Assembly (NCBI GenBank): GCA_965223295.1
Contig: CBDCWC010000002.1
Span: 768,001 to 832,000 of the forward strand
DNA length: 64,000 nucleotides
Direction: 5' to 3'
Origin: Nitrospirales bacterium
GTDB taxonomy: Bacteria; Nitrospirota; Nitrospiria; Nitrospirales; UBA8639
This document shows positions 1,556-51,379 of the stretch, piece by piece. The notes beneath the pieces were generated by a model. It searched no databases and was not told where the DNA came from. It worked only from the letters and a program-made list of their open reading frames with translations. Made by a program: the position numbers and the translations under genes. Numbering within the stretch: the first letter of the stretch is position 1; every line of letters starts with the position of its first letter.

Positions 1556-1975
1556 ATGCATTCCCACGCTACACAAACTCATCGAATTCTAGGCCTAATA
1601 ACCATTATGTTCCTCATGCTGTGGGCGGTTCCCTCTAAGAGTCAGGGCACGTTCATACTAAATGCAGATGACACTCAAGCCAAAAAATGGATGGAACTCC
1701 AGCCGGATATCCGTTCATCTTTTGTCCTGGGATTTCTAGCGGGCCTCGATTATGTGTATAACTCCACGGGGCTTACGGTCACATTAAACCGTGCACTATC
1801 GGCAAAAGAACTTTCTGCGCATGTCTACAAAAGCCTATTGGACCAGCCTGAGTTGCGGGCAGGCCCAATAGACGAAATCATTCTTAATGCGCTTGACCAT
1901 GTGCTCACGATAACCGATAAATCTGGCATACAAGTGAACCCAGGACTAAAAGAAGTCGATCTCACGACCCGCTAA
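1556..1975 (+). CDS. Secreted hypothetical protein
   Basis: 139 aa ORF with a signal-peptide-like N-terminus. Confidence 0.55.
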   Translation: MHSHATQTHRILGLITIMFLMLWAVPSKSQGTFILNADDTQAKKWMELQPDIRSSFVLGFLAGLDYVYNSTGLTVTLNRALSAKELSAHVYKSLLDQPELRAGPIDEIILNALDHVLTITDKSGIQVNPGLKEVDLTTR

Positions 1976-3455: not shown

Positions 3456-3491
3456 TAGACAAAAATTGGTGACTTGCTGGGTAAATGTCTA
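3456..3491 (-). promoter_or_regulatory. 36-bp box upstream of the csbD-PepSY operon
   Basis: + strand TAGACA-N24-TGTCTA. Confidence 0.7.
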
Positions 3492-5340: not shown

Positions 5341-5970
5341 CTAATGAGTATTGGTTAAACGAGCATCCACCGCCTTCCAATCAATATTGGCAAAAAAGGC
5401 TTCGATGTACTTTTGCCGATCAGAAGGAGCATAGTCGATGAGGTAGGCATGTTCCCACACATCTAGCACAAGAATAGGGATAAATCCGGCGACGTTGCCG
5501 CTCTCATGTAGACTAATCCAATGATTAGACAGTCGCCCGTTTTGGGGATTCTGATAACAGATGGCCCACCCCACCCCACGCAGATTCGCTACTCCCACAA
5601 AATCAGCTTTCCAGACCTCATAATCTCCAAAACTTGCATCGACTGTTTTTCGAAAGAGAGATTCTGGTTCAGGATCTTCACGGCCCTCCTTCGTGAGGTT
5701 TTCAAAATAGTATTCGTGCAGGACCATGCCGTTATATTCGAAACCAAGACGCCGCGTGAGTTCCGAATACGCCGGCTTCTCTTCTTGATCAATGTGGCCA
5801 TCTCTTAAGAATTCATTGATTTGATCCATCAGGGAGTTTGTTTGACTGACATATCCTTCATAGAGATTAAAATGCATTTCCAGGCTCTGATTTGAAATAC
5901 CCTTCAATCCGTTAAGATGGAATGATTTCACTGTGTAAGGTGCTGGCTTGATCATCGCTGCTCTCCTCAA
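5341..5970 (-). CDS. sod: Fe/Mn superoxide dismutase family protein
   Basis: H..LYEGYV, NGMVLHEYYF and DVWEHAY signatures. Confidence 0.9.
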   Translation of the reverse strand: MRRAAMIKPAPYTVKSFHLNGLKGISNQSLEMHFNLYEGYVSQTNSLMDQINEFLRDGHIDQEEKPAYSELTRRLGFEYNGMVLHEYYFENLTKEGREDPEPESLFRKTVDASFGDYEVWKADFVGVANLRGVGWAICYQNPQNGRLSNHWISLHESGNVAGFIPILVLDVWEHAYLIDYAPSDRQKYIEAFFANIDWKAVDARLTNTH

Positions 5971-6599: not shown

Positions 6600-6649
6600 A
6601 ATATTTTTACGGGAAAGGCAGCACAAAAAATCTTGCTAGACAAATTCGA

Positions 6650-7843
6650 TTAACGAGCAGGAAGCATGTCCATATTGACGTTTAACTTTTCAACGATATT
6701 TCCGGAACGCAAGCTACCAATGAACTCTTTGGGGTCCACTGGCTCTGGAAGTGGCAAATCCACGTTATACCAATTATCCTTGGGCTTCCCTCTTTTGACT
6801 CGGATCTCATCGAAAAACCCATTAACCTTATCGTCGTCAATGTCTTTCTTAAAGCGTACTTGAACATGACGCGTCACGACTGATGTCGTAATAATTTCGA
6901 TATCGCTTCTCTTCGACAAAGGTTTTAGAATTTTATCTGGTGATTCTGAGTTGGGAACGCTCATATTAAAGGAATACCACCCACCCATCTGCGCATGATC
7001 TTGGGCGGACACATCTTTAAAGAATTTTTCTATCCCCGTAGGCTTCGTTCCTTTTTTGAATCGTACCCACACCGGACGACTTTCCAGAATTCCACTTTTG
7101 AAAGTTTCGGCTTTCTTCTCTAGTAATGTGTTGCCAGTGTCCTGACTCTGCTCACTTCGGCTGACAACTTGAGTTCCTAATGTCTGCTGTTCCCCATCTG
7201 TGCCACTATTTACCGCCATAACCGAGGTCTGATCCAGTCGCTTCTGAATCGCGGTCAGTTGTTGGAGCACTTCCTGAAGCTGATGATCCTTGGAAGCCAC
7301 AAGTGAGCCTCCGTCATTCGAGCGAGTGGAAGTTTGTGCAAATCGGTCAATAACTAGGAACACTACCCCTGCAGCTAAAATGATTTGAGCCGCGAGAGCA
7401 AGCATGGACCATGAACTCGGTTCATTTTTGCCATCTTGTTGCTTTTGCTCGCTTGATTCACTCACTGAGGGCTCTGATGGGATAGCCAGTAGGTTTTTCG
7501 ATGTCAGTTGAACGACACTCTTGTCTTCCTCACGCTGAAGATCGAGTTCAAACACATAATTTCCAGCCTGCAATTCTGCCTCTGCGGACTTCTGACCCTC
7601 AGACGAAAGAGAACCCACTGGAAGCCCGGAAGACGACCGAAGTTCTATAAGACTCGGAGAAGGGCCGACTTGAAAAGTTTTTGTGGCGATAGCTTGAGGA
7701 TGACATTCTAGGGTACCAACGCTCTTGTTATCCACAAAGATTTGAATTGATTCTAGTGATTCAGTTTCTCTTCGGTAGCGTTGATCCCACAATGCCTGAA
7801 TGAGGTATTCCTCGTATGCTTTGAGCTCTTCCTTAGCTTCCAT
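6650..7843 (-). CDS. Single-pass membrane protein with two tandem C-terminal repeats (anti-sigma/sensor-like architecture)
   Basis: Central TM segment (MLALAAQIILAAGVVFLVI). Two repeats: VWVRFKKG..GIEKFFKDV..GWYSF and VQVRFKKD..KVNGFFDEI..NWYNV. Overlaps the upstream gene. Confidence 0.65.
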   Translation of the reverse strand: MEAKEELKAYEEYLIQALWDQRYRRETESLESIQIFVDNKSVGTLECHPQAIATKTFQVGPSPSLIELRSSSGLPVGSLSSEGQKSAEAELQAGNYVFELDLQREEDKSVVQLTSKNLLAIPSEPSVSESSEQKQQDGKNEPSSWSMLALAAQIILAAGVVFLVIDRFAQTSTRSNDGGSLVASKDHQLQEVLQQLTAIQKRLDQTSVMAVNSGTDGEQQTLGTQVVSRSEQSQDTGNTLLEKKAETFKSGILESRPVWVRFKKGTKPTGIEKFFKDVSAQDHAQMGGWYSFNMSVPNSESPDKILKPLSKRSDIEIITTSVVTRHVQVRFKKDIDDDKVNGFFDEIRVKRGKPKDNWYNVDLPLPEPVDPKEFIGSLRSGNIVEKLNVNMDMLPAR

Positions 7844-8720
7844 GCTGTTGTACTCCCGAAAAGTTACCCTGCAATATTTTTGATGTTGGGCTTGCCAGTT
7901 GAAGCTGCAATTTCAATTCTAGTGATTCTTCACTTTGAGCACCCTGGACCGTAGACTTGTAGACCATATCGAGACAGGGATAGCACATTGCCAGATGCCA
8001 AATGCGATAATCTTGCCCATAACCATCCGAGAACATCTCTTCCCATTTCTCTTGTGTTTGGCATGGGTAATGCTCTGGTTCACTTTTTCTGTAATGAGAC
8101 TGCACCTCTATCAACAATTTCTGAGCTTCGGGATTAACGATATGAGGTTTGACTTCCAGCTGCTGCTCTAAACTGGCAATCTGTGAAATATCGAGACCAA
8201 TTTCTTGCATGGTTCTATGCCATCCAGATTGTCGCCAACGAGTGAAATTTTTGTAAATCCGCTGACTTTGTTCCTCGGCTAGGCCAAGTAGCTTAATCAC
8301 CTGCGAAGGAGTAAAACTATAAAAATGCGTAAATTGAGCAATGAGGGCATCTCGACTGATTACGGCCCTCGAAGTCAATCCATCAATAAATTTTTCAAGA
8401 GGTGAGTGCGGCGTAGGATGGTAAATAAATGAGTTTGGCTGGCTAAAGTGCTTTGCGACAAAGCTATCCAACAGAAGAACTGGTCGACAAGGAACTTCAT
8501 TGCGGGCATAGACAAGAAAACGTTCAACCAATTCATAGGCTAACCGTAGCGCCAATTTTTCATGGTTCACGTTTTCAGACCAACTATTCGTCTCCTTCAA
8601 TAATTTTTTCGTGTAACTACTTGCTCGGCTTAAAAGTAGAGACATAGACTCTTCCGCGAACTGATCGTACTCGGCTTTAGTCCGGACGATTGTGTCTGAA
8701 ATGACGGGTTGAGTATCCAT
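7833..8720 (-). CDS. Putative transcription regulator with a sigma region-4/HTH-like segment and C-terminal HxxxCxxC
   Basis: SRDALIAQFTHFYSFTPSQVIKLLGLAEEQSQRIYKNF is HTH-like; WHLAMCYPC is the HxxxCxxC motif. Start placed at MDTQPV after AGAGGGA; the ORF track extends to 8837. Confidence 0.55.
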   Translation of the reverse strand: MDTQPVISDTIVRTKAEYDQFAEESMSLLLSRASSYTKKLLKETNSWSENVNHEKLALRLAYELVERFLVYARNEVPCRPVLLLDSFVAKHFSQPNSFIYHPTPHSPLEKFIDGLTSRAVISRDALIAQFTHFYSFTPSQVIKLLGLAEEQSQRIYKNFTRWRQSGWHRTMQEIGLDISQIASLEQQLEVKPHIVNPEAQKLLIEVQSHYRKSEPEHYPCQTQEKWEEMFSDGYGQDYRIWHLAMCYPCLDMVYKSTVQGAQSEESLELKLQLQLASPTSKILQGNFSGVQQHGS

Positions 8721-8874
8721 TCCCTCTGATAATGTTGAATTTTTTTTTATGCGGAATGGAAGCAGTGTACCCAGAACATGAGTACATGGCAACCTGTCAG
8801 GAGTCGAATCCGTCCAGGGAGGAAAGGTTGAGTTCATAATAAATTCCCCAGGATTTACGGACTTTTAAAGTCTA

Positions 8875-9394
8875 TCAGTTCACGGTCTTGGTCGGCTGAG
8901 CTTCTAAGGAAGATGACTTGAGGCATTTGAGAATTTGACGTTCGGCTTCTAGCCAGTCCTCCCATTCTCGACCAGGATCGCATCCCCTCTCTTCAAAGAG
9001 CCTGTACGCCAAGCTTTGGATGTCCTGGTGAAAAAAAGAGCGAATTGCGGCATCAATCGGTCCTCCCAGAAACGGTTCTTCATTTCCTCTCGGCCCGCCG
9101 ACAACTTGGTCAGCTCCCAAACGAAGCACTTCGGGAACAGCATTCCTGACGGAAGCCCCAGCCACGATAAGAATCTTTCCCATGAATCCCTGCTGACGTA
9201 GATTCTCCACAATCTTCAGAGCGTTAGGATCCACTATATATAAGTCCAATACAACAACATGGGGATCAGTCTCTAGCACCAAATGTGCACACTTCCTGAC
9301 TATGGGGAGAGACGACGACTTCATAACCTTGCTGACTGAGAAACTCTGTGAGTTGGTTTCGGAGCGATTTATGGTCTGTCGCTACGACAATCAT
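8875..9394 (-). pseudogene. Atypical receiver (REC) + DUF2934 fusion, frameshifted near 9290
   Basis: Frame A from ATG 9394 reads MIVVATDHKSLRNQLTEFLSQQGYEVVVSPHSQEV. Frame B continues AHLVLETDPHVVVLDLY...IQSLAYRLFEERG..GREWEDWLEAERQI (DUF2934). One extra base separates them; this could be a sequencing error. Confidence 0.75.
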
Positions 9395-9514
9395 GAGCTT
9401 TCTCACCCCAAGATACGTGGCACCATCGAAAACAATTTTCTACTCTTAAGACTGCACCAAACTTATCTTTTCCGTTTAGTCGGTAACTTAGCTACAGAAT
9501 AAAGAATTATTCAA

Positions 9515-9550
9515 TGGACAAACCTGTCTACCCCATTTGCAAAATGTCCA
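9515..9550 (-). promoter_or_regulatory. Box upstream of the candidate regulator operon
   Basis: TGGACA-N24-TGTCCA; TAAGTT lies 24 nt downstream on the - strand. Confidence 0.75.
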
Positions 9551-9579: not shown

Positions 9580-9615
9580 TGGACATTAGGTAAATCGTGA
9601 ATCCAGATTTGTCCA
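9580..9615 (+). promoter_or_regulatory. Box upstream of the Pro-rich ORF
   Basis: TGGACA-N24-TGTCCA. Confidence 0.7.
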
Positions 9616-9642: not shown

Positions 9643-9924
9643 ATGAAGGAAAGAAAAGGTAACCATCGAGCAATGACGGATGAGAGGGGAAATATGGGAA
9701 AAAACAACCCAGCCAAGGAACCTCAAAAACTCAAGCGGGACGATCCACCCATACAAGAGCCACCGAATGAGCCGAAAAAGTCTCCAGTGGAGCCTCCTAA
9801 GCGCACACCTCAAAAACCACCCGTTGAGCAACCACCCACGCCCTCGCCACCTAATGAACCACCATCGAAAGACCCTCAACCCATCGGAGATCCACCACCT
9901 ACGAGTCAACCAGTCATGACGTAA
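9643..9924 (+). CDS. Small Pro-rich disordered protein
   Basis: Repeats of PP(I/V)(Q/E)(E/Q)PP. Preceded by a regulatory box. The start may be a downstream Met. Confidence 0.5.
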   Translation: MKERKGNHRAMTDERGNMGKNNPAKEPQKLKRDDPPIQEPPNEPKKSPVEPPKRTPQKPPVEQPPTPSPPNEPPSKDPQPIGDPPPTSQPVMT

Positions 9925-11422: not shown

Positions 11423-11458
11423 CAGACATTTCGTGCCTCCAGGGTAGCGATTTGTCCA
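11423..11458 (+). promoter_or_regulatory. Box upstream of 11517
   Basis: CAGACATTT...TTTGTCCA, N24; TACGAT 25 nt downstream. Confidence 0.7.
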
Positions 11459-11938: not shown

Positions 11939-11974
11939 TGTACATCCTGACAACTTTCTCAGGGTATTTGTCCA
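11939..11974 (+). promoter_or_regulatory. Box upstream of the DUF948 gene
   Basis: TGTACA-N24-TGTCCA; TACACT 23 nt downstream. Confidence 0.65.
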
Positions 11975-12967: not shown

Positions 12968-13570
12968 ATGAAATGGGCCTCTGCTACAATCCGTGCATCA
13001 CTGTTCTGTGAACTGGAAAAAGCGAGAGACACGACCCTGAATGCGATTATGAGAATAGACTTTTTGACTTCTTGGTTAGTTGTCCTAGCATTTCTTTCGG
13101 TGCAGTCATTTTTACCTGGCTGTACGAGCGTTACGACCCAGCCCGAGGTTCTTACTCCGGAAAAGGAGTCCAGGACTTTGTCTAGGGAACCAGTGGACCT
13201 ATCTGGAATTTGGGAGTATCAAGATAAAGATGCTGCCTATCCTTTGACACTAGATGAAGAAGGAAATGGTAGATACAATTGGCAGGGCGGTCATTTTGTG
13301 ACAATTAGTATAGTTGACGATCGGTGGCAAGGAAAGTGGCGCCAGACAGCAAATGATCGTGAAGGCGGGTTCGCTCTCAGGTTATCATCGGACGGAAACT
13401 ACGCAGAAGGTCGATGGTGGTATACCAGAATAGAGGACAATGATTCTCCCACTGAACCGGGAGGCAGTTTTACGTTGTTAAGAAATCCATCTTCTTCCCA
13501 AATTGATACGGGTAGCTGCGCTGATCCGTTTGGAGAATTAGAGGAAGTTTTCAGCAGTCGTGAATGTTGA
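12968..13570 (+). CDS. Hypothetical lipoprotein
   Basis: LPGC lipobox-like site and a Trp/Gly-rich beta domain (LSGIWEY, WQGKWRQ). The real start is probably downstream. Confidence 0.6.
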   Translation: MKWASATIRASLFCELEKARDTTLNAIMRIDFLTSWLVVLAFLSVQSFLPGCTSVTTQPEVLTPEKESRTLSREPVDLSGIWEYQDKDAAYPLTLDEEGNGRYNWQGGHFVTISIVDDRWQGKWRQTANDREGGFALRLSSDGNYAEGRWWYTRIEDNDSPTEPGGSFTLLRNPSSSQIDTGSCADPFGELEEVFSSREC

Positions 13571-15257: not shown

Positions 15258-16746
15258 GTGCAGATTTTTCCCCAACGTGTGACCTTTCTCGTCGATGCAA
15301 GATCAGCTTTAACTTTCCTTACTCGTGCTCCAGCGCTATTGGTTAGACGACAGAAGGTGCGTCGAACAATCGCTACATGCTGCTTTCTGCTTATTTTGTT
15401 TGGCGCCCCTTCTCTTTCAACATCATCTGAAGCCTCTCCGGAATCTGGTGAACGATCCTTCACTGATTATTGGAATGACTTCCAAACATACATGAACGAC
15501 AAAGGTGTGATTCTCCAGACCATCAACACACTAGATTTTCTAGGAAATACATCAGGAGGTTTACGTCGAAAAACCGCAGTTGCTGGTGACCTGGATTTAT
15601 TGCTGATCCTCGATGGCGAAAGATTTTCTAGGTTGGAATGACGCTACACTTTTTCTGTATGGACTCGGTGTGTATGGTGACGATCCGAGTCAAAACATCG
15701 GAGATGCTCAGGCAGTCAGCAATATCGCCGCGCCTAATGAATGGAGACTCTTTGAAGCCTGGTATCAGCAAAATTTCTTTCAGGGTCGTATGTCACTGTT
15801 AGCCGGCCTGTATGATGTGACTTCCGAATTCGATGTCATCAGATCATCGTCAGAGGTTTTTTTGAACGGTTCATTTGGAACAGGTCCTGAATTCGCTTCA
15901 AGCGGTAAAAATGGTCCATCAACCTTTCCAGTGACATCTTTGGCGTTTCGAGCCCAAGCAATCCTGAGCGATAACATCATGGTCCGCGCGGTTATTGCTG
16001 ATGGTGTTCCAGGTAATCCCAAGGATCCTGGCGGCACTCAAGTCATAGTGCGTAAAGCAGATGGGGCATTTATTGGAACAGAGCTTACTTTTTATCAACA
16101 CCGAAAAAAAAAGAAGAGAGATGCACAAGAAATTCTCAAACAACGCCCATTTCGTCTCGCCTTTCAACGGGTGGGACGAGCGGCTCCCATCGAGTATCAG
16201 GGGAAATATGCTCTCGGACTATGGGGTTATACTACAGACTTCAATGATCTCAGCGATGTCGATGCGACTGGCTTACCCCTGAAACGAGAGGCGACCTACG
16301 GTATATATGGATTAGCTGAAACAATAGTTTATCATGAATCTCAGGATAGAGAACAGAATCTGACCTTATTTGCCCGAGTTGGATTTGCTGATCCAAGAGT
16401 CAATCGCTTCTCGCAGTATTATGGAGGAGGTTTTGTCTATCGAGGTCTGCTTCCGAACCGTAATGATGATCAGATTGGGATTGGCGTCGCTGCCGCATTG
16501 AACGGAAGTCATTTTAAGCAAGCACAGCGAGATGCAGGAGACGCGGTAGATGATGCAGAAATTGCTCTAGAAATGACGTATGCCATCAATGTAAGCCCAG
16601 AACTCGTTATTCAACCGAATGTGCAATACATCATTAATCCAGATACGAATCCAGCCATCAAAAATGCCTTCGTCATCGGTGCAAGGTTGCAGCTGAACCT
16701 GAATTGGTTCGAAGGGCCAACTACATCTGTAGAGATTCAAAAATAG
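15258..16746 (+). pseudogene. oprB: OprB-family carbohydrate porin, split by a +1 frameshift
   Basis: Removing one T from TTTT at 15624-15627 gives LDGERFLGWNDATL. RLFEAWYQQ and IQPNVQYIINP motifs are present. Confidence 0.8.
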
Positions 16747-16810: not shown

Positions 16811-17662
16811 TTAATTCAGTTCTTTTGTGGGATAGGAAATGCCCACAACCTTATCATGCCGATCGATTAATAGGGTCACATCCATTCCTTTAGAAAGTTT
16901 GTTTAAATCGTCCTTCACGAAATCCCATATGAGAAATGAGATCGTTTGATCGTCTTTTTTGATGGTCAAGTCTTGGTCACTTGGCTCCTCATGTACGGTT
17001 CCTTCCACGTGACGATAGACATTGAAAGCAGTGGATCGCGCCCAATCTCTTTCTGCGACGACATCCTTCGTGAGTGTGGCGCTTGCGATTTTATTAGTTT
17101 CGTCCAGTAAGAACAGCCCTTGGGTATCGAATGGAAGGGCGGCGACCTCGCTACGCGCAAGCGGACGTATGGAAAATGTTTTGACCGATCCATCTGACAT
17201 TTTAATCATGGCATGCTCGTGCCCGACTGGTAAGGGTTGGGCGAGAAAGCCTTTCATCACTTTGTGATGGCTGTCGATTTTCTTATCCAACAGATGGTAA
17301 TCCACAACATGGTTTTTCGCGTTCACGATAATTTGAACCTTGTCTTCATCCTTAAGAATAAACCCTTTCTCTCTTGCACGCTCTAAAGACAGATACCGTG
17401 GGCTTATTTCCCCCGTATCACCGGAATTGACTTTTGCATGGTCTTCCGCCACACCCTCTACCGTACCAGTGATGATCCTGTGATTTGGGATAAGTGAGTT
17501 GTGCTTCTGTTGATCGTTTCCGATCTGTCTCGGTTGAGCATGAGGTGTGGTTGAAGTTGGTTCTTCGTTACCAGCAGCCAGGCTGATGGAAATCAGAGAC
17601 AAGATAATATAAGGAATTGCCACGAAATTTAAGAATTTTCTTGTTGGGCGAAGCCTGAACAT
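16811..17662 (-). CDS. Secreted hypothetical protein with repeated OB-fold-like segments
   Basis: Signal peptide and AGGAG RBS; ITGTVEG and VEGTVHE segments. Confidence 0.6.
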   Translation of the reverse strand: MFRLRPTRKFLNFVAIPYIILSLISISLAAGNEEPTSTTPHAQPRQIGNDQQKHNSLIPNHRIITGTVEGVAEDHAKVNSGDTGEISPRYLSLERAREKGFILKDEDKVQIIVNAKNHVVDYHLLDKKIDSHHKVMKGFLAQPLPVGHEHAMIKMSDGSVKTFSIRPLARSEVAALPFDTQGLFLLDETNKIASATLTKDVVAERDWARSTAFNVYRHVEGTVHEEPSDQDLTIKKDDQTISFLIWDFVKDDLNKLSKGMDVTLLIDRHDKVVGISYPTKELN

Positions 17663-17783: not shown

Positions 17784-18311
17784 TTACTTCCGTTGTTCAA
17801 CAGGCATACCTGAATCGACTGCATCAAGGGCAGATCCACCAGAGATTGCACTCATGGCTCGATCACGTTCTTGACGGATATTTGATGTTTCTTGTTGAAG
17901 AGCATCTCGCTCTTTCAAATACTGATCCCGCTCTTTAACTAATTGTTTAGTTTCTTGGTTTCCGTTTTCGTTAGCGCTCTTAGCCTGAATAGATCCGCCC
18001 TTACTAGCGCTGGCCTGAGCCTGTTGCGCTTCATCACGTTCCTTTTTGGCTTGATCACGTTCCTTTTCAGCCTGTTCTTTGCTTTTCTTAGCTTCATCTC
18101 GTTCTCGAATTAGCTGATCGCTCCATGTTGCGCCAAACTTTGCACTAGGATGTTTCTTAACGTCAGACATGCCACTAGCTGACGAGGGTGACGTGGAAGA
18201 ACCGACCGACTTGTCCATGGCCACAGCTAATTGCACCGCTCCTGATGCGACAAATAATCCACACATTGCTAACGCGAAAATTGGAGATTTACCCTTTTTC
18301 ATGATGACCAC
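17784..18311 (-). CDS. Secreted hydrophilic coiled-coil protein with ERD repeats
   Basis: Signal peptide and repeated (K/R/Q)ERD(E/Q/A/R). Confidence 0.65.
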   Translation of the reverse strand: MVIMKKGKSPIFALAMCGLFVASGAVQLAVAMDKSVGSSTSPSSASGMSDVKKHPSAKFGATWSDQLIRERDEAKKSKEQAEKERDQAKKERDEAQQAQASASKGGSIQAKSANENGNQETKQLVKERDQYLKERDALQQETSNIRQERDRAMSAISGGSALDAVDSGMPVEQRK

Positions 18312-18595: not shown

Positions 18596-18631
18596 TGGAC
18601 AAAAATGGGAATATACGTTCAAAGATGTCCA
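18596..18631 (-). promoter_or_regulatory. Box upstream of 18311
   Basis: TGGACA-N24-TGTCCA; TAGAAT 24 nt downstream. Confidence 0.75.
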
Positions 18632-24135: not shown

Positions 24136-24171
24136 TGGACATTTCAGAAGATGCGTTCTGTCTTTTGTCCA
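24136..24171 (+). promoter_or_regulatory. Box upstream of hemerythrin 1 and FNT
   Basis: TGGACATTTCAGAAGATGCGTTCTGTCTTTTGTCCA. Confidence 0.75.
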
Positions 24172-28275: not shown

Positions 28276-28311
28276 TAGACTTTCTTCATTGAAATATGGA
28301 TTTTTTGTCCA
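28276..28311 (+). promoter_or_regulatory. Box upstream of PRC-barrel and katA
   Basis: TAGACT-N24-TGTCCA; TATGGT 25 nt downstream. Confidence 0.7.
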
Positions 28312-33786: not shown

Positions 33787-34938
33787 TTAGTACCGGCCCA
33801 GAACACCATCTCCTCTCAAATACGGCCGAGAATAATATCGTTTAGAATTCCTACTTTGAGTGCGAATTCTCTTTCGTTCACGATCTTTGTTCGCAAGCCT
33901 ATCCTGCGGGCTGTAAAACCGCTCACGCGTGGACATTTCTTCGTCATCTTCATCGAGATCCCAATTTTTCCGAACGTGGGCCAAGGCACTCTCATCTTCT
34001 TTCAGCATAGGAAGCCCCGCTATTTGCTTATCTGATACGTCCAGTGTAGCTGTTTTTCCGTCAGATGACGTGTCTAAAGCCTCCCAAGGAACCGAAATCA
34101 TTTGACCTTCTTTTTTCTTAATGATGGCGTACGCAGGATTCCCTTCTGAGTCGTTCAAGACTTTGGTGACATTTCCTACCTGCTCGCCTTCCTTAGTTTT
34201 AACAGGAAACGCATCTTCATAAGTTTTGGGATTCAGACTTCCTAATGCTCCAGCGGGCAACACCGTATATTGAGTCGAACGCCCGAAATCACGGCCTGAT
34301 CCAGATCGAGACATAGATTGGCTACTTCCTTCCCGCCGTTTCATATAGCGAACGAACTGAGCATTTCCTCTATGATCGATACGTGCTTTGATTCGATCGC
34401 CCGTTTGAAAATTACAATCGCCAAATTGGAATCCTGCCCGTTGCGATTGTTTTTTGGAAGACATAGCAGAGCTTGAAGAATCTTTCCCTTTCGTAGGAGA
34501 CATGGTGCTGGATGATCCAGAAGCATCAGACCCCGTTGAGGCAGATTGACTCTTGGATCGACAAACCATATTCGTATCCTCAGAAACCTGAATTTGCATT
34601 CGCTCACCATCACGTGTACGAACCGTGAATTCATTCTCCTGAATACCAATAATTTTCCCTTTCACGACTTCACTATCTTCTTCGTAACGCATAGATCTCT
34701 TGTCGTCGACTGTGTCTAGGTCGCCATACTGATTAGTGTAATAGTCACGTTTATTGCCTCGACGATCTCCAGATCTATGGTAAAAATCATCACTGGCTCG
34801 GCGACCATCATCATGGGAACGGTAGTAGCGACCTCCATCATCATAGTTACGAGGGCTGGCGAACGTTCCACTGGCAAGCACGGGCAACGACAACATTATC
34901 ACGCCCAAACTTGCGGCAGTTTTTTTAAAAGCTGGCAT
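33787..34938 (-). CDS. Secreted low-complexity protein with a PRC-barrel-like domain
   Basis: Signal peptide; VKTKEGEQVGNV...YAII...VPWEAL. Confidence 0.7.
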   Translation of the reverse strand: MPAFKKTAASLGVIMLSLPVLASGTFASPRNYDDGGRYYRSHDDGRRASDDFYHRSGDRRGNKRDYYTNQYGDLDTVDDKRSMRYEEDSEVVKGKIIGIQENEFTVRTRDGERMQIQVSEDTNMVCRSKSQSASTGSDASGSSSTMSPTKGKDSSSSAMSSKKQSQRAGFQFGDCNFQTGDRIKARIDHRGNAQFVRYMKRREGSSQSMSRSGSGRDFGRSTQYTVLPAGALGSLNPKTYEDAFPVKTKEGEQVGNVTKVLNDSEGNPAYAIIKKKEGQMISVPWEALDTSSDGKTATLDVSDKQIAGLPMLKEDESALAHVRKNWDLDEDDEEMSTRERFYSPQDRLANKDRERKRIRTQSRNSKRYYSRPYLRGDGVLGRY

Positions 34939-35071: not shown

Positions 35072-35107
35072 TGGACAAATTCGTAATCTTGTTTCGGAAA
35101 TTGTCCC
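35072..35107 (-). promoter_or_regulatory. Box upstream of 34938
   Basis: TGGACA-N24-TGTCCC; TAGAAT 24 nt downstream. Confidence 0.7.
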
Positions 35108-35171: not shown

Positions 35172-35207
35172 TAGACATTTTTGGTTAAAATTCTGATCTT
35201 TTGTCCA
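35172..35207 (+). promoter_or_regulatory. Box upstream of double-BON 35330
   Basis: TAGACATTTTTGGTTAAAATTCTGATCTTTTGTCCA. Confidence 0.75.
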
Positions 35208-36566: not shown

Positions 36567-36602
36567 TAGACATTTCACTTTGCCAACCATGCAATTTGTC
36601 CG
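36567..36602 (+). promoter_or_regulatory. Box upstream of PRC-barrel 36725
   Basis: TAGACA-N24-TGTCCG; TACGTT 24 nt downstream. Confidence 0.7.
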
Positions 36603-42178: not shown

Positions 42179-43918
42179 TTAGTTCAATAAATCTTGAAAT
42201 GTTCTCGGGAGTTCGTCAATGAGATAGGGTTTTTGAATAAAGTAGAAATCTTGTCCTTCTAACCGCTTCTTCGCTTCTTCCTCAGAGTGCCCGCTTGAAA
42301 CTACTATCTTGGTATCCTGACGAATACTACGAATTTGGCGAAACACTTCTTCTCCATTAAGCTGCGGCATCGTCAAGTCAAGGAGGACTCCCGCTATCTC
42401 ACTAGCCTGTGCTTGAAACAGCCGTATGCCTAGATTGCCATCAGATGCTACCAGAACTCTGTACCCTGCATGTTCTAAGATCAATTGGGCTGCGGTTTGA
42501 ATATCTTCTTCATCGTCAATAATGAGAATAAGTGCACCAGGTTGACGACCGGATGCGCTATTCACAGGTGCAGACTGCACGGTGCCTTCTGCTGAATGCG
42601 GAAAAGAAGCAATGGGAAATATTAAACGAAAGGTAGTTCCTTGTCCTACTTCACTGGTGACAGCAATGCCCCCTCCGTGCGCTCTTACGATTCCTAAAAG
42701 TGCCGCGAGTCCCAACCCACGCCCCGTAAATTTTGTCGTAAAGAACGGATCGAATATTTTGGGTATTTCGCTTTGGTGCATACCAACTCCCGAATCCGTC
42801 ACCTCAAGACAGACAACGTCTCCCGGAACTATATTTTCCGCTAACACGCATTCATTCAAAAGGTTTTGCGTAACCTTTATCTTTTTTGTGCTGATTCGGA
42901 TCACTCCATGTTTTTCTTCGAGCGATTCTGATGCATTGGTGGTTAAATTGACCAAAATCTGACGAATTTGAGATGGATCCGCAATGATACGAGGCAGGTC
43001 TTCATCCAGCTCGTACTGCAATACGCCTTTCTGTGAGATTGGCACCTGCATGAGATGTGACATTTCTCGGATCAGTTCGGAAAGATCCAATGATTCCATT
43101 GTGACTTTGCTGTGTCCTGCGTACGCCAAGAGTTGGTGTGCCAATTCACCACCTCTCAATGCAGCTTTTTCAATGGTTTTCAAACGATCGTGCTGAAGGC
43201 TGCTTTCGGGTACATCCCGAAGGACTAACCCTGTATGAGAGGAAATCACGGCAAGAAGGTTATTGACATCATGAGCAATTCCTCCTGCCAGCACGCCCAG
43301 ACATTCGAGTTTTTGTGCATACTGAACCTGGGATTCAAGACGCTTTCTTTCGGTGATATCCAGGACCGCAGTTCGACACCACTTGACCTGATTGTTCTCG
43401 TCACGGATCGGAACGCTTTCTAGAAAAACAAATAACGACTGCCCTGAGCTTTGAAGACATGCGACCTCAACAGAAGCATGATGGAACCCGAGAAACACCT
43501 GACTCAAATGCCTGTCAAAACTTTCCCGAGAGTCTGCATGCACACAATAGACCATATTAGCGTGCTCGAGTTCATCACGATCTCGTCCCAACATTTTACA
43601 GCCAGTCAAATTTACTTTTTCGACTCGACCAGTCTGATCCAAGATAAAATATCCAATCGGAGCACTTTCAAAGAGATCGAGGTACTTCGCATGAGAGTCT
43701 TCAAGCTCACCTTGAATTTTCCAAAGACTTTCATTCTGAACGCGTAACTCTTCCTGATGGATGCGTAAATTTTCTAACGTTTGTTCAAGATGTTTTTTGG
43801 TCTGTCGGTGTTCCTGCTCTCGGTCCCGAAGAACGTTTATCTCCCCATGGAGCTTATCCATGTGGGTAGCATCAGTAGGGCCAGGATCGCTGAGGGGATC
43901 AGGAATGTCGTGTGCCAT
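42179..43918 (-). CDS. PAS hybrid sensor histidine kinase (HisKA-HATPase-REC)
   Basis: AGGIAHDVNN, NLTTNA, PFFTTK..GRGLGL; receiver LLDLTMP...KP. Confidence 0.95.
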   Translation of the reverse strand: MAHDIPDPLSDPGPTDATHMDKLHGEINVLRDREQEHRQTKKHLEQTLENLRIHQEELRVQNESLWKIQGELEDSHAKYLDLFESAPIGYFILDQTGRVEKVNLTGCKMLGRDRDELEHANMVYCVHADSRESFDRHLSQVFLGFHHASVEVACLQSSGQSLFVFLESVPIRDENNQVKWCRTAVLDITERKRLESQVQYAQKLECLGVLAGGIAHDVNNLLAVISSHTGLVLRDVPESSLQHDRLKTIEKAALRGGELAHQLLAYAGHSKVTMESLDLSELIREMSHLMQVPISQKGVLQYELDEDLPRIIADPSQIRQILVNLTTNASESLEEKHGVIRISTKKIKVTQNLLNECVLAENIVPGDVVCLEVTDSGVGMHQSEIPKIFDPFFTTKFTGRGLGLAALLGIVRAHGGGIAVTSEVGQGTTFRLIFPIASFPHSAEGTVQSAPVNSASGRQPGALILIIDDEEDIQTAAQLILEHAGYRVLVASDGNLGIRLFQAQASEIAGVLLDLTMPQLNGEEVFRQIRSIRQDTKIVVSSGHSEEEAKKRLEGQDFYFIQKPYLIDELPRTFQDLLN

Positions 43919-45656
43919 GGCTGCGTGAAAGCTGCTCTTGAATCACTTGATCAAGTTCGTGAGACAGTAACGGTTTCATCAAAAAAGCCGTGATGCCGAC
44001 GGCCTGCGCTCGTTCTGGTGTCATGACATGGCTAAAACCTGTACAAAGAATAACTGGCATTTCGGGCTTGAGTGATAACACTCGTCTCGCGAAGTCTTCA
44101 CCAGTGATTTTAGGCATGGTTTGATCGACAACGACGACATCGAATGACTCCGGATTGGCCTCAAATAACGCCAATCCCTCTGATCCACTTGTACAGGCAA
44201 CGGCGTTGTACCCCAATCGCTGCAACATTTCTACTCCCATACGAGCGAGAGGTTCCTCATCGTCGATCAAAAGGATTCTTCCTGGAATTCGAGGTGCCAG
44301 CGGCGGTGGTGTCTGAACAGGTTTGGTGGTTGGTTTATTCTTGAGGGGCAAATAGACTCCGAATCGTGATCCTTTTGGGCTACTTTCTTCAAGAATAATG
44401 ATGCCTTTATGGTGGGTCACGATACCATGTGCGACGGATAACCCCATGCCGGTGCCTTCTCCTAATTCTTTGGTTGAAAAAAATGGATCAAATATTCGTG
44501 ACTGGACTTTTGCCAAGATTCCAGAGCCTGTATCTTGCACCGTTAGGTAAACATGGGGCACCGGCTTAAGAGGAGGATGTGCTTTGGCAAACTCGGAAGA
44601 GACCTCAATGCGTGACATTTGAATGGTTAAACACCCCCCGGTTTCTCGCATCGCATATTCAGCATTCGTACACAGATTGATGATGACCTGATGAAGTTCG
44701 GTGGGATCAGCCAGCACCCACAAGCTTTCTTTCTCCACGAGATGGGTTTCAATGCGAATTGTTTTGGGAAGTGTCGCCTGCAACAATTGAATGGATTCTT
44801 GGATGAGATGTTTCGGATCCAGCAATTGTTTTGTTGGTTCGGTTTGGCGACTAAACGCTAATATTTGACGGACGAGATCCTTCGCACGAAATCCGGCGGT
44901 TAGCACTTCATCCAAATAGCGATGGATTGGACTACCCGATGGCAGGTTACTCCGGGCAAGCTCTAAATTTCCTAGCATGGCTGCCAAAATATTATTAAAG
45001 TCGTGAGCAATCCCTCCAGCGAGCGTGCCAATGGCTTCCATTTTAAAAGCTTGTCGTAACTGTCGTTCGGTATGAATAAGTATGGCCTCAGCTTTTTTCC
45101 TGTCAGAGATGTCAACCACGGTAGTGCGAAACAGTTTTTTTGTACTAGAAGGCTCGTGAATCAGCACACTCTCAAGGCGTAAGGGAATGGTTTTTCCACT
45201 CGTGTGCACACACTCAACTTCTGTCGATGAGGAGCGAATCTTCACCGAAAATTTCCTTAAATGAGCTGAAAACATTTTTCGAGCTTCATGGGTTAAATAG
45301 AGAAGAAACGGCTTACCCGAGAGGTATTCACATCCGTACCCTAAAAGTTCTGCTCCTTTTTTATTCGCCTGCTGAATGAGTCCATGCTCATCAATGATGA
45401 AATATCCGACGGGCGCCTGGTCGAATAGGTCACGATATCGCCGAGACGACTCTTCCAGATTCTCCTGCACTTGCCGCAGTTCTTCATTTTGTGTACGCAA
45501 TTCTTCTTGATGGATTGTGAGATTTTCTAAAGTACTCGACAGCTCTCGCTCAATCTGTTCCTGATATTCTTCTCGAGCTTGTAATCGAGTCACCTCTTTT
45601 TGTAATCGATCAACCTCGATCTGGAGGGCTTGGAATTTGTGTTCAGATTCAGACAT
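43899..45656 (-). CDS. PAS hybrid sensor histidine kinase (HisKA-HATPase-REC)
   Basis: AGGIAHDFNN, NLCTNA, GTGMGL; receiver VVDQTMP...KP. Confidence 0.95.
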   Translation of the reverse strand: MSESEHKFQALQIEVDRLQKEVTRLQAREEYQEQIERELSSTLENLTIHQEELRTQNEELRQVQENLEESSRRYRDLFDQAPVGYFIIDEHGLIQQANKKGAELLGYGCEYLSGKPFLLYLTHEARKMFSAHLRKFSVKIRSSSTEVECVHTSGKTIPLRLESVLIHEPSSTKKLFRTTVVDISDRKKAEAILIHTERQLRQAFKMEAIGTLAGGIAHDFNNILAAMLGNLELARSNLPSGSPIHRYLDEVLTAGFRAKDLVRQILAFSRQTEPTKQLLDPKHLIQESIQLLQATLPKTIRIETHLVEKESLWVLADPTELHQVIINLCTNAEYAMRETGGCLTIQMSRIEVSSEFAKAHPPLKPVPHVYLTVQDTGSGILAKVQSRIFDPFFSTKELGEGTGMGLSVAHGIVTHHKGIIILEESSPKGSRFGVYLPLKNKPTTKPVQTPPPLAPRIPGRILLIDDEEPLARMGVEMLQRLGYNAVACTSGSEGLALFEANPESFDVVVVDQTMPKITGEDFARRVLSLKPEMPVILCTGFSHVMTPERAQAVGITAFLMKPLLSHELDQVIQEQLSRSHGTRHS

Positions 45657-45786
45657 TCAGCATGTCACTGGGACTGGGAACGTATCGGTTTATCAAAGCC
45701 CACAACACATGCTTAGCCTATGGCCTAGACTCTGGGCTATGTTTCCTACGTATCACTCTAGAGATGTCAGGAGCATTATGGAAGAC

Positions 45787-48700
45787 TCACGGCGGATATT
45801 GTTCTTTCAAAACTTGAATGTCGACCATGAGAAAGAACAATCCCTTGACCGTTGTTTTATCATTTGCATCTTCATCAGGAACGAAAGTTATTTGAACCCA
45901 GCGTGGGCTTCCATCTTTATGAAGCAATTGAAACTCAAACGTGACATGCTCTCCCGCCAGCGCTTTAGCTATGTATGATGTAAGCTTTTCGTACGTGCCC
46001 TCTCCCAGTACGTCCTTGATATGTGCCTGCTGCACATCTTCCTGTGTCATTCCGACCCACTCTAAAAACTGATTATTCACGATCTGAATCCGATGGTCGG
46101 AATCAATCGATCCAATGAGAGCTGGACAATGATCCATCACGAGCCGACATTGGTTTTCCTGTTCTTGAATAAGACGTTTCGCTTCTTTTGTGTCTGTAAT
46201 ATCTTCAGCTAAGCAGACAAACCGCACCACTTCCCCAATTTCGCTAAGGATCGGCCAACTGCGGTCTCTAATCCACTTTGTTGAACCATCAGGCCGAAGA
46301 ATTCGATAATCGATATCTTTATATTTGACGGGTTCTGTTTCTTTCCAATACTCTTGAACGCGATTTCGGTCGCCAGGATGAATCGTGGTGATCCAGTCCA
46401 TGTCTGAATCATACAAGGTTTGACAAGGTCTCCCCCAAATTTTTTCATAAGCAGGACTCACATACTGCACATGCTTTCCGGTTGGATCTGTGATCCAAAA
46501 CACCTCAGTGATGTTCTCTGCAATTTGACGGAATCGTTCTTCACTTTCGCGAAGTGCCCGTTCGGCTTCCTTGTCTTCCGTAATATCCATGAAGGTCAAA
46601 ACAGCTCCGATTGGCTCCAAATCCTGTGAGTAGTAAGGAACACCTTGAAACAAATAGACCTTCCCATTGTTCGATAATTCTCGGACCTTTGCTCGTTTCT
46701 CACGCATCACTTCTTCGATATCGTCTCGTAAAGTCGGAAAATGCAATTTACAGGGCATCGTGCTTAAATTATGCCCGATACTTTCTTGCGTGATCGTGAA
46801 GATAAATTTAGCGGGAGGGGTAAATCGAGTCAGGTTCAATCGCTTGTCGACGACGAGCATGGCGAATCCAACGGCATGCTGGATATTCTCCAAATCTGCA
46901 TTAGCAGCACTCAACTCAGCCGTTCGCTCCTGTAATTCTTCATTCAACGTGTTAAGCTCTTCATTCGTCGACTGAAGCTCTTCATTCGCAGTTTCGAGTT
47001 CTTCGTTTGAAGATTGAAGTTCTTCATTGGCCGATTGAAGTTCTTCATTCACAGACTGGAGCTCTTCATTAGCTGTTTCAAGTTCCTCAACGGTCGTGTG
47101 TAAGTGTTCTTGAGTAACGGTCAGTTCGTTCTGTAATTCTCGAATACGCGTTTCTGTAACATCTTCCACCTGAAGAGAAGATGGGGGAGAGAGAGTCGAT
47201 GCCTGAGAGACAGCAGGCTCAAATGCCACCAGTTTACTGCCCTGACGACCATAGCCCTCAATGGGTTGAATGTAGAGATGAAAATGAGCTTGAGTCTTAT
47301 CATCCCTCAGCTTGAGCTCTCGACTGCGAACCGGCTTCATATCTTTTCCGACTTTTGTCAATAAGGCGCGTAAATCTGTTCGAATTTCTGGGCGCGCCAT
47401 TCGTAATACCTGCAAGTTTGAGTCCCCTTCCGGAAGTGATAGATAATTCTTGACATCACCTCGTACGTGAAGAACTTCATGTTGTTCATTGACAACGATC
47501 GCTGGAGGCCCATAAGCGTCTATGAGGACCCGGTTCGCCACCTCAGCCAGGGGTAGCTCGTTTGTCATGTTCGCTTGATTTGTCACGAACTTTTTCGAGA
47601 GTGCCGGCAACCTGCCCAATGTAAATTCTGGCTTCCGCCTTTTGAACTCCCCACGACACCGAAAGATCTTCGTCTTCTTATGGTCGACTGGAGAAAACAG
47701 ATCGACGTACTGTCCAACCGATTCGGACTTCCCAAGGAAAAGATACCCATTTGGTTGCAGCACGTAGTGGAATAGGGGAAGAATTTTTTGCTGAAGCGTT
47801 GCGGAGAAATAGATTAAGACATTTCTGCAGCTAATCAGATCCAGATGAGAAAATGGGGGATCTTTTACGAGATCCTGTCGAGAGAAGACGACCATTTCTC
47901 TGATTGATTTATTCACTCTGAACGAATGATCCATTCTCGAAAAGTATTTATTCAGGATTTCTTTGTTGACCGTGGTTAGCGCCGTTTCCGAATAGAGTCC
48001 TTTACGTGCTCGTGTGAGGGCTTCTGAATCAATATCTGTGGCAAATATTTGTATCGGTACGTAGATTTTAATCTCTTCCTGTACGACGCTCAGAAGAATC
48101 GCGATCGTGTAGGCTTCTTCTCCGCTGGCGCAGCCTGGTATCCATATCCGAACCGTTTCCCGACGCTTCTTGCTGGTGATGATGTGTTGGAGGACGGGCC
48201 TTAACGAGTCAATAGACTCCGGATCACGAAAAAACCCTGTCACCGAAATAAGAATGTCCTTAAACAACGCATCAAGCTCTTGCGGATTCTTTTCAAGCAA
48301 TTGAACATAATGTGAGAGATCTTGGATTTTATGAACGGTCATCCTCCGCCCTATCCGGCGAAGAATCGTATTTTGCTTGTACCCGGAAAAATCACAGCCC
48401 GTCCGATTATTCAGTAAGGACATAAGCGATTGCATCACCGTTGGGATATCCGCTCCACGAGCAAGTTTCGGAATTCGGGTAGGGTACACCAGCACTCCAA
48501 GAAGATTTTCTCCTATCTCCTGAGGGGTCATGATCAGGTCGACATGACCCGTATCGATCGCAGCTCTAGGCATTCCATCGTATTTGGCCGAATCAGGCTT
48601 TTCAGCAATGGTGATTCCGCCGTTGGCTTTCACGGCAGTCATGCCATGAGCGCCGTCGGTCCCCGTGCCCGACAGAATAATTCCCACGCTCTTTTCTCCC

Positions 48701-49173
48701 CGATCTTCTCCGAGGGTTGTTAGTAATAAATCGATAGAGGGTTTTGGACCTAAGAGAGTTGTCGGCTTGGGAAGTAGAAGACGGCCTTCAGAGACGACCA
48801 CATTGCAGTCTGGAGGGGTAATGTAGATGGTCGCCGGCTTTGGCACGATTCCGTCTTGCACTTCCTGAACAGGGAGATCTGTATGTCGACTTAACAAGGC
48901 TGTCAACATGCTGGGATGCTTTGGGTCTAAATGCTGCGCCACCACATACGTCAGATTGTCTCGGTTTGGCAAGGATGGCAACAGGGCCTGAAGAGCCTCA
49001 AGTCCACCGGCAGACGCTCCGATTGCGACGATGACCAAATCCGAACCGTCGTGAAGTTCTTTTGAAGAAGAGGTGGTCTTAACGGACTTGGAGGATGGCT
49101 GAGTTTTATTTGTCGACTGGCGTTGGGATTTTGCTGATGCGGCGGTCTTTTTGGACTTTTTTTCTCGTGTCAT
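45787..49173 (-). CDS. CheB methylesterase-CheR methyltransferase-coiled coil-PAS fusion
   Basis: GASAGG/QHL/GTDG (CheB); GCASGEEAY, ATDID, ISCRNVLIY (CheR); NEEL heptads; PAS domains; no kinase domain. Confidence 0.95.
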   Translation of the reverse strand: MTREKKSKKTAASAKSQRQSTNKTQPSSKSVKTTSSSKELHDGSDLVIVAIGASAGGLEALQALLPSLPNRDNLTYVVAQHLDPKHPSMLTALLSRHTDLPVQEVQDGIVPKPATIYITPPDCNVVVSEGRLLLPKPTTLLGPKPSIDLLLTTLGEDRGEKSVGIILSGTGTDGAHGMTAVKANGGITIAEKPDSAKYDGMPRAAIDTGHVDLIMTPQEIGENLLGVLVYPTRIPKLARGADIPTVMQSLMSLLNNRTGCDFSGYKQNTILRRIGRRMTVHKIQDLSHYVQLLEKNPQELDALFKDILISVTGFFRDPESIDSLRPVLQHIITSKKRRETVRIWIPGCASGEEAYTIAILLSVVQEEIKIYVPIQIFATDIDSEALTRARKGLYSETALTTVNKEILNKYFSRMDHSFRVNKSIREMVVFSRQDLVKDPPFSHLDLISCRNVLIYFSATLQQKILPLFHYVLQPNGYLFLGKSESVGQYVDLFSPVDHKKTKIFRCRGEFKRRKPEFTLGRLPALSKKFVTNQANMTNELPLAEVANRVLIDAYGPPAIVVNEQHEVLHVRGDVKNYLSLPEGDSNLQVLRMARPEIRTDLRALLTKVGKDMKPVRSRELKLRDDKTQAHFHLYIQPIEGYGRQGSKLVAFEPAVSQASTLSPPSSLQVEDVTETRIRELQNELTVTQEHLHTTVEELETANEELQSVNEELQSANEELQSSNEELETANEELQSTNEELNTLNEELQERTAELSAANADLENIQHAVGFAMLVVDKRLNLTRFTPPAKFIFTITQESIGHNLSTMPCKLHFPTLRDDIEEVMREKRAKVRELSNNGKVYLFQGVPYYSQDLEPIGAVLTFMDITEDKEAERALRESEERFRQIAENITEVFWITDPTGKHVQYVSPAYEKIWGRPCQTLYDSDMDWITTIHPGDRNRVQEYWKETEPVKYKDIDYRILRPDGSTKWIRDRSWPILSEIGEVVRFVCLAEDITDTKEAKRLIQEQENQCRLVMDHCPALIGSIDSDHRIQIVNNQFLEWVGMTQEDVQQAHIKDVLGEGTYEKLTSYIAKALAGEHVTFEFQLLHKDGSPRWVQITFVPDEDANDKTTVKGLFFLMVDIQVLKEQYPP

Positions 49174-49305: not shown

Positions 49306-49341
49306 TGGACAAAATTTTCCTTGAAAAATGCAATATGTCTA
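49306..49341 (-). promoter_or_regulatory. Box upstream of the cheBR-kinase operon
   Basis: TGGACA-N24-TGTCTA. Confidence 0.72.
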
Positions 49342-51343: not shown

Positions 51344-51379
51344 TAGACAAAATTAGAGTCCACTCGTAAGATTTGTCTA
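51344..51379 (-). promoter_or_regulatory. Box upstream of double-BON 51267
   Basis: TAGACA-N24-TGTCTA; TACGTT 24 nt downstream. Confidence 0.75.

Follow-up and report, generated by a model that had tools for sequence, protein, structure and literature searches.

We analyzed 64,000 nucleotides of contig CBDCWC010000002.1 of a Nitrospirales bacterium (assembly GCA_965223295.1, positions 768,001 to 832,000; G000:C2:768001-832000 in our numbering, hereafter the window; genome G000, 3.78 Mb, 47% G+C), with a focus on a minus-strand operon and the symmetric DNA element TGGACA-N24-TGTCCA (the box) in front of it. The box is a real, local element, and the conserved core of the locus is a two-gene module, encoding a sigma-like protein (gene 2) and a single-pass membrane protein (gene 3), that is preceded by its own box. 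Structural models support a very distant sigma-factor ancestry of the gene 2 protein, and the module most likely switches on the general-stress genes that are clustered around it. Tentatively, and with less than even confidence, we favor a sigma-derived, anti-sigma-controlled activator that would bind the box as two copies over a canonical sigma factor.

The operon, the box and their joint distribution

The operon comprises three co-oriented open reading frames (ORFs) on the minus strand, 8875..9324 (gene 1), 7833..8837 (gene 2, alternative start at 8720) and 6650..7843 (gene 3). The ORFs of genes 2 and 3 share an 11-nt overlap, and no terminator-like sites were found on the minus strand inside the operon. 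A preliminary description of this DNA, drawn from the sequence alone, had placed three co-oriented genes behind a perfect box; the ORFs and the box at 9515-9550 were both verified. A second perfect box faces a divergent ORF. The features of the locus are listed below (boxes carry no strand).

9515..9550: perfect box TGGACA-N24-TGTCCA; the promoter-proximal half, 9515-9520 in minus-strand reading, faces the operon
9580..9615: second perfect box, facing the divergent small proline-rich ORF
9694..9924, plus strand: divergent small proline-rich ORF, 76 aa from 9694 or 93 aa from 9643, without Pfam family
9485..9490, minus strand: putative -10-like hexamer TAAGTT, 24 nt after the proximal half-site
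9266..9394, minus strand: N-terminal piece of the receiver, 42 codons and then a stop, in a frame that differs from the rest of gene 1
8875..9324, minus strand: remainder of the REC-DUF2934 gene (gene 1), a 149-aa ORF; intact and 165-182 aa in relatives
7833..8837, minus strand: sigma-like protein (gene 2), 334 aa, or 295 aa from 8720
6650..7843, minus strand: membrane partner (gene 3), 397 aa, single-pass

The core is limited to genes 2 and 3 because the receiver gene is broken here and a receiver gene adjoins the module in only 4/80 related loci when 4-kb flanks are considered (0/17 loci with 1.5-kb flanks). A gene 3 homologue lies directly downstream of gene 2 in 46 of 78 loci by tblastn, and in 15 of 18 loci by ORF reading (11 of them aligned). 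The genome carries a second copy of the pair on contig C3 (L002, G000:C3:117554-121399), in which the gene 2 paralogue (281 aa, 64% identity) is again followed by a gene 3 homologue (395 aa, 45% identity). This pair lacks a receiver gene; in front of it are a gene for a DUF1328 membrane protein and a one-mismatch box, and another box is located approximately 0.5 kb downstream (C3:121628).

The window contains nine box matches at up to one mismatch, where 0.16 are expected from shuffled sequences. When spacers of 10-39 were scanned genome-wide, only the spacer of 24 was enriched, with six perfect copies, each other spacer giving zero or one. An objective pattern, RGACAW-N22-WTGTCY, is found 21 times in the genome: 17 copies fall between 770 and 850 kb of contig C2 and two flank the paralogous pair on C3, such that 19/21 accompany one of the two gene copies. 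Neighboring spacers of this pattern occur 2-7 times in this genome and 0-1 times in the island around the module. A search at up to two mismatches yielded 28 hits, of which nine without the GACA...TGTC core were dropped; the other 19 were curated by hand and oriented by the nearest downstream gene. In 19/19 curated sites both halves of the core are invariant and two-fold symmetric (GACA-N26-TGTC), and the sequence of the proximal half is TTTGTCCAT. In this genome, directionality is seen in the half-site nearest the gene and in its T-rich flank. Two other explanations of the box were rejected, namely an RNA or DNA hairpin (complementarity is limited to the hexamers, and in gene orientation the T-rich strand is the same for both flanks) and a -35/-10 pair within the 24-nt spacer (the spacer has no conserved positions).

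Among 61 genomes of the order, the gene 2 family is present in 20 and absent from 41. The strict box was found in four of the 20 gene-bearing genomes (G000, 10 copies; G023, six; G041, two; G026, one), and as a single copy in one of the 41 that lack it. As the half-sites vary in the Nitrospiraceae (CGGACA, TGTCGA), a looser scan was needed, which identified a box (up to two mismatches, spacer 24 or 25) at most 400 nt upstream of gene 2 in 69/78 loci, with spacer 24 in 38 and 25 in 31, compared to 7/76 in a control window. The preliminary description had expected box and operon to occur together across genomes; this is borne out both by these loci and by the 61 genomes, among which more than one strict box occurs only in gene-bearing ones. 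In G042 (3.3 Mb) the sole strict match lies upstream of the gene, and in G017 the two strict matches flank the module. Genes beside further boxes in G023 and G017 encode TPR proteins, a STAS-like domain, a glycosyltransferase and unknowns; conservation of the stress regulon was not seen outside this clade. Neither the sigma-like gene nor the box turned up when three further genomes of the same genus were searched, and the island may therefore have been acquired or lost within the genus.

The sigma-like protein and its predicted membrane partner

The 180 homologues of gene 2 are all unnamed or 'hypothetical', and their named sources are Nitrospira or Nitrospirales; one 2-kb contig bearing a homologue was binned as Bdellovibrionales. 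In the genome collection 199 relatives were found, including cultured strains, e.g., Candidatus Nitrospira defluvii (L056). Judged by these sources, the family is restricted to Nitrospirales. A 39-codon N-terminal extension (8721-8837, minus strand) is conserved at the protein level in the nearest homologues, P0002-P0004 and P0008, and absent from others; given this patchy conservation, gene 2 starts either at 8837 or at 8720. Residue numbers below are those of the 295-aa form.

An AlphaFold model of the protein (mean predicted local distance difference test, pLDDT, 76.8; mean pLDDT 80 for a second model of residues 100-295) comprises a region 2-like domain (residues 4-97), a region 4-like helix-turn-helix (HTH) domain (residues 105-178) and a Cys/His domain (approximately residues 180-260). 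Residues 4-97 match region 2 in sigma factors of the extracytoplasmic function (ECF) group, including SigC (Z 7.5, rmsd 2.9, 83 residues aligned), SigR (Z 6.8), SigH (6.6) and AlgU (6.5), followed by SigK, SigW, BldN and CnrH. Of the top 20 rows 13 are sigma factors, and the sigma-like domain of PhyR is also among the structural matches (Z 5.6). A sigma region 4- or HTH-like stretch had already been suspected in this protein, and residues 105-178 of the model match region 4 of SigW (Z 4.5, rmsd 2.5, 64 residues aligned), SigL (4.0), CnrH (4.0) and SigR (3.7), with region 4 domains making up 13 of the top 22 rows. Low Z-scores are expected for a domain of 65 residues. Regions 2 and 4 match the same chains in collinear order, and a language-model feature search, taken as a lead only, places Sigma70_r2/ECF clusters on top (0.83-0.86). 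As sigma chains dominate both structure lists, the matches are collinear and the feature search agrees, the models support a very diverged protein of sigma-factor ancestry.

A number of comparisons weigh against this ancestry. Every structural Z-score is below 8, and such scores can reflect a common helical arrangement; taken alone, the region 2 match is therefore evidence of moderate strength. Foldseek searches of the PDB with the whole model and with the C-terminal model returned no match at E ≤ 0.001. Pfam recognized 0/36 family members and 0/6 further representatives (no Sigma70 r2, r4 or ECF model), and a sequence-profile search of the PDB retrieved no sigma factor, only two chance-level matches. 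In a profile search of 1.84 billion representatives there were 42 matches, many of them fragments, and no bridge to known sigma factors. Alignment with hhalign against five ECF sigma factors of the same genome gave a probability of 0.2%, the 22 aligned columns being those of the expected HTH stretch.

The WHLAMCYPC motif that had been reported for the middle protein of the operon is present. Residues C78, C220, H242, C246, and C249 are invariant in 36/36 aligned homologues, as are the residues of the predicted basic recognition helix (Q153, R154, K157, N158, R161, and R163). Four of these, C220, H242, C246, and C249, form a C-x21-H-x3-C-x2-C arrangement located at helix ends in the model, with three helices carrying the candidate zinc ligands; the most distant member, P0148, has a His near the first motif position. 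The pattern C...HxxxCxxC is that of zinc-binding anti-sigma (ZAS) factors, and it is found here on the sigma-like protein itself, as the preliminary description had it. The zf-HC2 model matched 0/36 members at E ≤ 1, and an Atlas search with residues 176-265, covering the Cys/His domain, gave no usable match.

Gene 3 matches no Pfam family. In agreement with the preliminary description, its product has an N-terminal domain (a helix followed by a beta-rich part), one transmembrane span (the hydrophobic stretch lies, by eye, at approximately residues 144-166) and two C-terminal repeats. A coiled coil precedes the repeats, which align at E 6e-8 over 68 residues. The preliminary description had suggested multimer modelling of these proteins, and for gene 2 residues 1-275 paired with gene 3 residues 1-140 the predicted complex scored 0.83, whereas the best of three controls reached 0.01. 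A score of 0.83 is reached by 58/80 solved complexes and 2/110 mismatched pairs, and likeness to solved sigma/anti-sigma pairs may contribute to it. The runs agree in at least 89% of contacts, with a partner pLDDT of at least 77. The N-terminal helix of gene 3 is predicted to lie on region 2 of the sigma-like protein (residues 26-30 and 55-70), with further contacts to region 4 (residues 154-177) and the Cys/His domain. This model supports an anti-sigma-like role for gene 3, as a clamp on regions 2 and 4.

Three loci stand out. In L011 and L018 gene 3 is replaced by a gene beginning MSDF(H/Y)QNGIVTVLHRLG, which we take to resemble a glucosyl- or mannosyl-3-phosphoglycerate synthase, a compatible-solute enzyme. 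In L008 (G039:C142:81005-84796) a 778-aa open frame surrounds the sigma-like match, and ORF reading gives the partner as a separate ORF; the long frame may continue upstream, or stem from a fusion or an assembly slip.

Promoter layout and candidate modes of action

At the operon box TTGAAT abuts the proximal half-site and is a possible -35 element. A TAnnnT hexamer is found 23-26 nt after the box in 10/19 curated sites, where by a rough estimate 1.5 would be expected by chance, and 58/62 distinct related loci have a [CT]Ann[AT]T hexamer at this distance. TTG often follows the half-site directly in the curated sites of this genome, and does so at offset 1 in 25/62 related loci. The simplest reading of these sequences would be a housekeeping-type promoter (TTGnnn, 17-18 nt, TAnnnT) with the half-sites at approximately -40 and -70. 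In five Nitrospira loci (L006, L008, L010, L012, and L013), a conserved GAAC-N17-CCGT(T/A) approximately 75 nt upstream of the box has, by eye, the look of an ECF-type promoter.

A second feature that bears on the mode of action is the connector between the two sigma-like domains. The unaligned gap between region 2 and region 4 is 10 residues and of constant length across the alignment of 36 sequences, compared to 40 residues in SigW, 38 in CnrH, 32 in SigK, 34 in BldN and 43 in SigH, the ECF sigma factors aligned in both searches. In solved ECF sigma factors a connector of approximately 25-40 residues passes through the polymerase, and we infer that one of approximately 10 residues is too short for the polymerase cleft.

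We favor an activator because of the two-fold symmetry of the site, its spacings of 24-25 nt and the inter-domain gap of 10 residues. The N-terminal domain of gene 3 would clamp regions 2 and 4 and keep the sigma-like protein inactive, and a signal would free it; this may be envelope stress sensed through the partner's outer portion, oxidation of thiols or loss of metal at the Cys/His site, or the two together. Two copies would then bind the TGTCCA half-sites, 30 bp apart center to center, through the HTH of region 4. The proximal half-site would be placed at approximately -42 to -37, against a weak sigma-70-type -35 (TTGnnn) and -10 (TAnnnT or CAnnAT), and the protein would activate, rather than repress, its own operon and about twenty general-stress promoters. 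Activators such as PhoB at the pho boxes and lambda cI at OR2 contact sigma region 4 from a site beside or overlapping the -35. The proximal half-site here similarly abuts a weak sigma-70-type -35, but the proposed activator would differ from PhoB and lambda cI in its sigma-derived fold, in inverted half-sites three helical turns apart and in its control by a membrane-bound anti-sigma-like protein. A wider proposal, which we regard as possible though doubtful, is that the sigma two-domain fold has come to work off the polymerase as a free symmetric activator, two copies of which bind inverted TGTCCA half-sites three helical turns apart beside promoters of the housekeeping type, and that with its anti-sigma-type membrane partner and a zinc/thiol switch it is the long-missing master regulator of the general stress response of nitrite oxidizers of the Nitrospira type.

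Several points count against an activator of this kind. Where a protein combines regions 2 and 4 with a neighboring anti-sigma, it is as a rule a true sigma subunit, and we know of no sigma-fold protein that acts as a dimeric activator. The '-10' hexamer ends in ATG behind GGAGG in many Nitrospiraceae loci, and could thus be a ribosome site plus start codon, in which case transcription would start inside or just after the box. The layout was read from 19 sites curated by hand from 28 hits, and the related loci are kin, so that their counts overstate independence. Several ORFs of the island without any family (12968..13570, 16811..17662, 1556..1975, 15258..15641, and 60409..60876) could encode the true box binder.

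The alternative that survives best, which we nevertheless rate as rather unlikely, is a true alternative sigma factor, i.e., an autoregulated member of a new and highly divergent ECF-like group that has a membrane anti-sigma and carries a Cys/His sensor domain as a fusion. The proximal half-site (TTTGTCCAtTG) would then serve as an extended -35 with TAnnnT/CAnnAT as the -10, or the two half-sites would themselves be the -35 and -10. Such a factor would explain why the region 2 and region 4 folds occur in the correct order with a predicted clamp across both, why the box lies upstream of its own gene in 69/78 loci, and why the gene-proximal half-site and T-rich flank are directional; the -35 motif TGTCACA of the ECF41 group also speaks for it. 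A single sigma factor needs no symmetry such as that of GACA-N26-TGTC, with both halves invariant, and the distance from half-site to next element is 24-25 nt, versus 16-18 in known sigma-70-family promoters. The connector of approximately 10 residues, versus 32-43 in the five ECF sigma factors, also argues against it, as do the TAnnnT -10 with TTG at -35, which is of the housekeeping type, and the lack of any family member matched by the Sigma70 Pfam models. ECF sigma factors with fused zinc-finger or Cys-rich extensions, a further point in its favor, are described in PMC8999054.

It is unlikely, in our estimate, that the box is bound by another protein, either a global regulator encoded elsewhere or one of the familyless ORFs of the island, with the sigma-like/membrane pair as a stress-induced member of the regulon. 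A symmetric site would suit an ordinary dimeric regulator, and the link between protein and DNA is one that we infer. An unrelated binder would, however, have to be co-inherited with the module: multiple strict boxes are confined to gene-bearing genomes, the strict matches of G042 and G017 lie only at the module, and 19/21 boxes of this genome accompany a gene copy. The sigma-like protein had been singled out as the only plausible DNA-binding protein of the window other than transposases, and a Pfam scan that covered 50 ORFs of the window, few of the small ones among them, and 13 in the 20 kb beyond it found no HTH or other DNA-binding family except the HTH_21 of two insertion sequence (IS) integrases.

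A sigma mimic comparable to PhyR, which would bind the membrane partner as a decoy and free a real sigma factor or regulator with no DNA contact of its own, could account for the short connector, the loss of all Sigma70 sequence signatures, the strong predicted complex, the structural match to PhyR (Z 5.6) and the REC protein encoded upstream in the closest relatives, but it is improbable, as the predicted recognition helix keeps its basic residues without variation, no second sigma gene is found in the module or island (a PF04542 scan of the genome gave 14 Sigma70_r2 matches, all elsewhere, and did not detect gene 2), the box would be left without a binder, and the receiver is absent from 76/80 loci.

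The receiver gene, known systems and the stress-gene island

In gene 1, Pfam detects DUF2934 (E 2.6e-11, 43.4 bits), whereas Response_reg stays below the threshold (E 5e-4, 20.5 bits versus a cut-off of 30.2). The gene is frameshifted here, with the first 42 codons of the receiver (ATG at 9394 to the stop at 9266) in another frame. In the four closest relatives (L041, L042, L043, and L073) it is intact in one frame, and the two that were scanned, L042 and L073, both have Response_reg and DUF2934 above the Pfam cut-offs. The frame break is probably real because the same sequence (identical over 8800-9700) appears in contigs from three runs of a single sample, perhaps the source, although this is no independent confirmation. 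The acidic pair of canonical receivers is replaced by T-H in the intact relatives and T-D here, the lysine by G or S, and the Thr/Ser by Ala; the aspartate is kept. With the acidic pair, lysine and Thr/Ser absent, canonical phosphorylation of this receiver appears doubtful. The REC-DUF2934 gene is a lineage-specific add-on, broken in this genome. Stand-alone small DUF2934 proteins (70-130 aa) are numerous in Nitrospirales, with up to seven matches per genome; the literature mentions DUF2934, and among the papers listed no title or abstract names it.

The preliminary description had proposed a rearranged sigma/anti-sigma switch functionally analogous to PhyR-NepR-EcfG. The sigma-derived fold, the anti-sigma-like partner and the stress regulon bear this out in part; a PhyR-type role of the receiver does not hold, as the gene is frameshifted, occurs in 4/80 loci and lacks the acidic pair and lysine. 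The likeness to PhyR-NepR-EcfG extends to the kind of regulon (CsbD, BON, PRC-barrel, catalase, Dps-like, and DUF1328 proteins) and, in the closest relatives, to the presence of a receiver protein. Unlike in PhyR, the receiver is fused to DUF2934 and separate from the sigma-like domain, and in most loci it is missing; nor does the module here contain a separate EcfG-type sigma. The box is also unlike the promoter motif of that system, GGAAC-N16-CGTT. With the ZAS factors RsrA, RshA, ChrR and RsiW the sigma-like protein shares HxxxCxxC, a fourth ligand approximately 21 residues upstream and the placement at helix ends in the model; unlike in these, the motif is located on the sigma-like protein instead of the inhibitor, and zf-HC2 detects none of the 36 members.

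The system represents a variation on ECF sigma factors that carry fused zinc-finger or Cys-rich extensions and membrane-anchored inhibitory parts. In its account of fused C-terminal extensions, PMC8999054 lists ECF48/52/53 (a zinc finger, likely ZAS, plus transmembrane helices), the CorE-type ECF238 and OrbS. These resemble the present protein in a region 2 and region 4 core followed by a Cys/His extension, in a membrane-anchored anti-sigma function and in a role in stress. They differ from it in that the membrane part is here a separate, translationally coupled gene, Sigma70 and zf-HC2 go undetected, the connector is approximately 10 residues, and the site consists of symmetric half-sites 30 bp apart instead of a -35/-10 pair. 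New features are a family invisible to existing models and specific to Nitrospirales, a ZAS-type motif on a sigma-like chain with a separate membrane partner, a very short inter-domain connector, a symmetric 36-bp site and a physically clustered stress regulon. A literature search at the level of titles and abstracts found no account of this system and no description of how the general stress response is controlled in Nitrospira and relatives. These organisms oxidize nitrite in soils, oceans and wastewater plants, and the module offers a compact candidate regulator with a defined DNA site and a defined partner that is present in cultured strains. Should the sigma fold work outside the polymerase, it would represent a new way of reusing sigma/anti-sigma modules; a true sigma factor would establish a new ECF-like group whose promoter is unusual.

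Approximately 77 kb of contig C2 (771-848 kb; the window and the adjoining L135, G000:C2:832001-852000) form a near-unbroken cluster of general-stress genes with 17 of the 21 boxes in the genome. Besides those at the operon, the following boxes were located in the window.

3456..3491: box TAGACA...TGTCTA, same regulon
6637..6672: one mismatch; overlaps the 3' end of gene 3 and faces downstream on the minus strand
11423..11458: two mismatches, core GACA-N26-TGTC kept
11939..11974: one mismatch, upstream of the DUF948 gene at 12099; fails the objective pattern
18596..18631: perfect, between the divergent genes 17784..18311 (minus strand) and MgtE at 19009 (plus strand)
24136..24171: perfect, upstream of the hemerythrin gene at 24266
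28276..28311: two mismatches, upstream of the PRC-barrel gene at 28408; fails the objective pattern
35072..35107: one mismatch, facing the PRC-barrel gene 33787..34938 (minus strand)
35172..35207: one mismatch, facing the BON gene at 35330 (plus strand)
36567..36602: two mismatches, upstream of the PRC-barrel gene at 36725
49306..49341: one mismatch, upstream of the gene for the CheB-CheR-PAS protein and those for two hybrid histidine kinases (42179..49173, minus strand)
51344..51379: box upstream of the BON gene 50623..51267 (minus strand)

The genes adjacent to boxes encode CsbD, two BrkB proteins, several BON-domain proteins (one with six domains), PRC-barrel proteins, DUF948, DUF3618 and a Holin-X-like protein; catalase, hemerythrins, a Dps/ferritin-like protein and AhpC; an MscS-BON channel, MgtE, MgtC, TrkH and AI-2E transporters; and an OprB porin, a YkuD transpeptidase, AsmA and YfdX. 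A regulon of general-stress genes is thus supported. The idea of a magnetosome or mobile island was dropped after the Pfam scan had revealed these genes. The operon behind the box at 49306 encodes a 1128-aa CheB-CheR-PAS protein and two PAS-HisKA-HATPase-REC hybrid kinases, which may act as upstream sensors in this response.

The ORF 37818-38213 (plus strand), located among the stress genes, encodes a protein homologous to the Anabaena sensory rhodopsin transducer (ASRT, E 1e-54); the ORFs scanned included no rhodopsin. By eye, the ORF 5341..5970 resembles an Fe/Mn superoxide dismutase. Two 258-aa rve-type integrase ORFs (25568-26344 and 61072-61848, both on the minus strand) have identical Pfam scores, and are therefore probably two copies of one IS element in the island.

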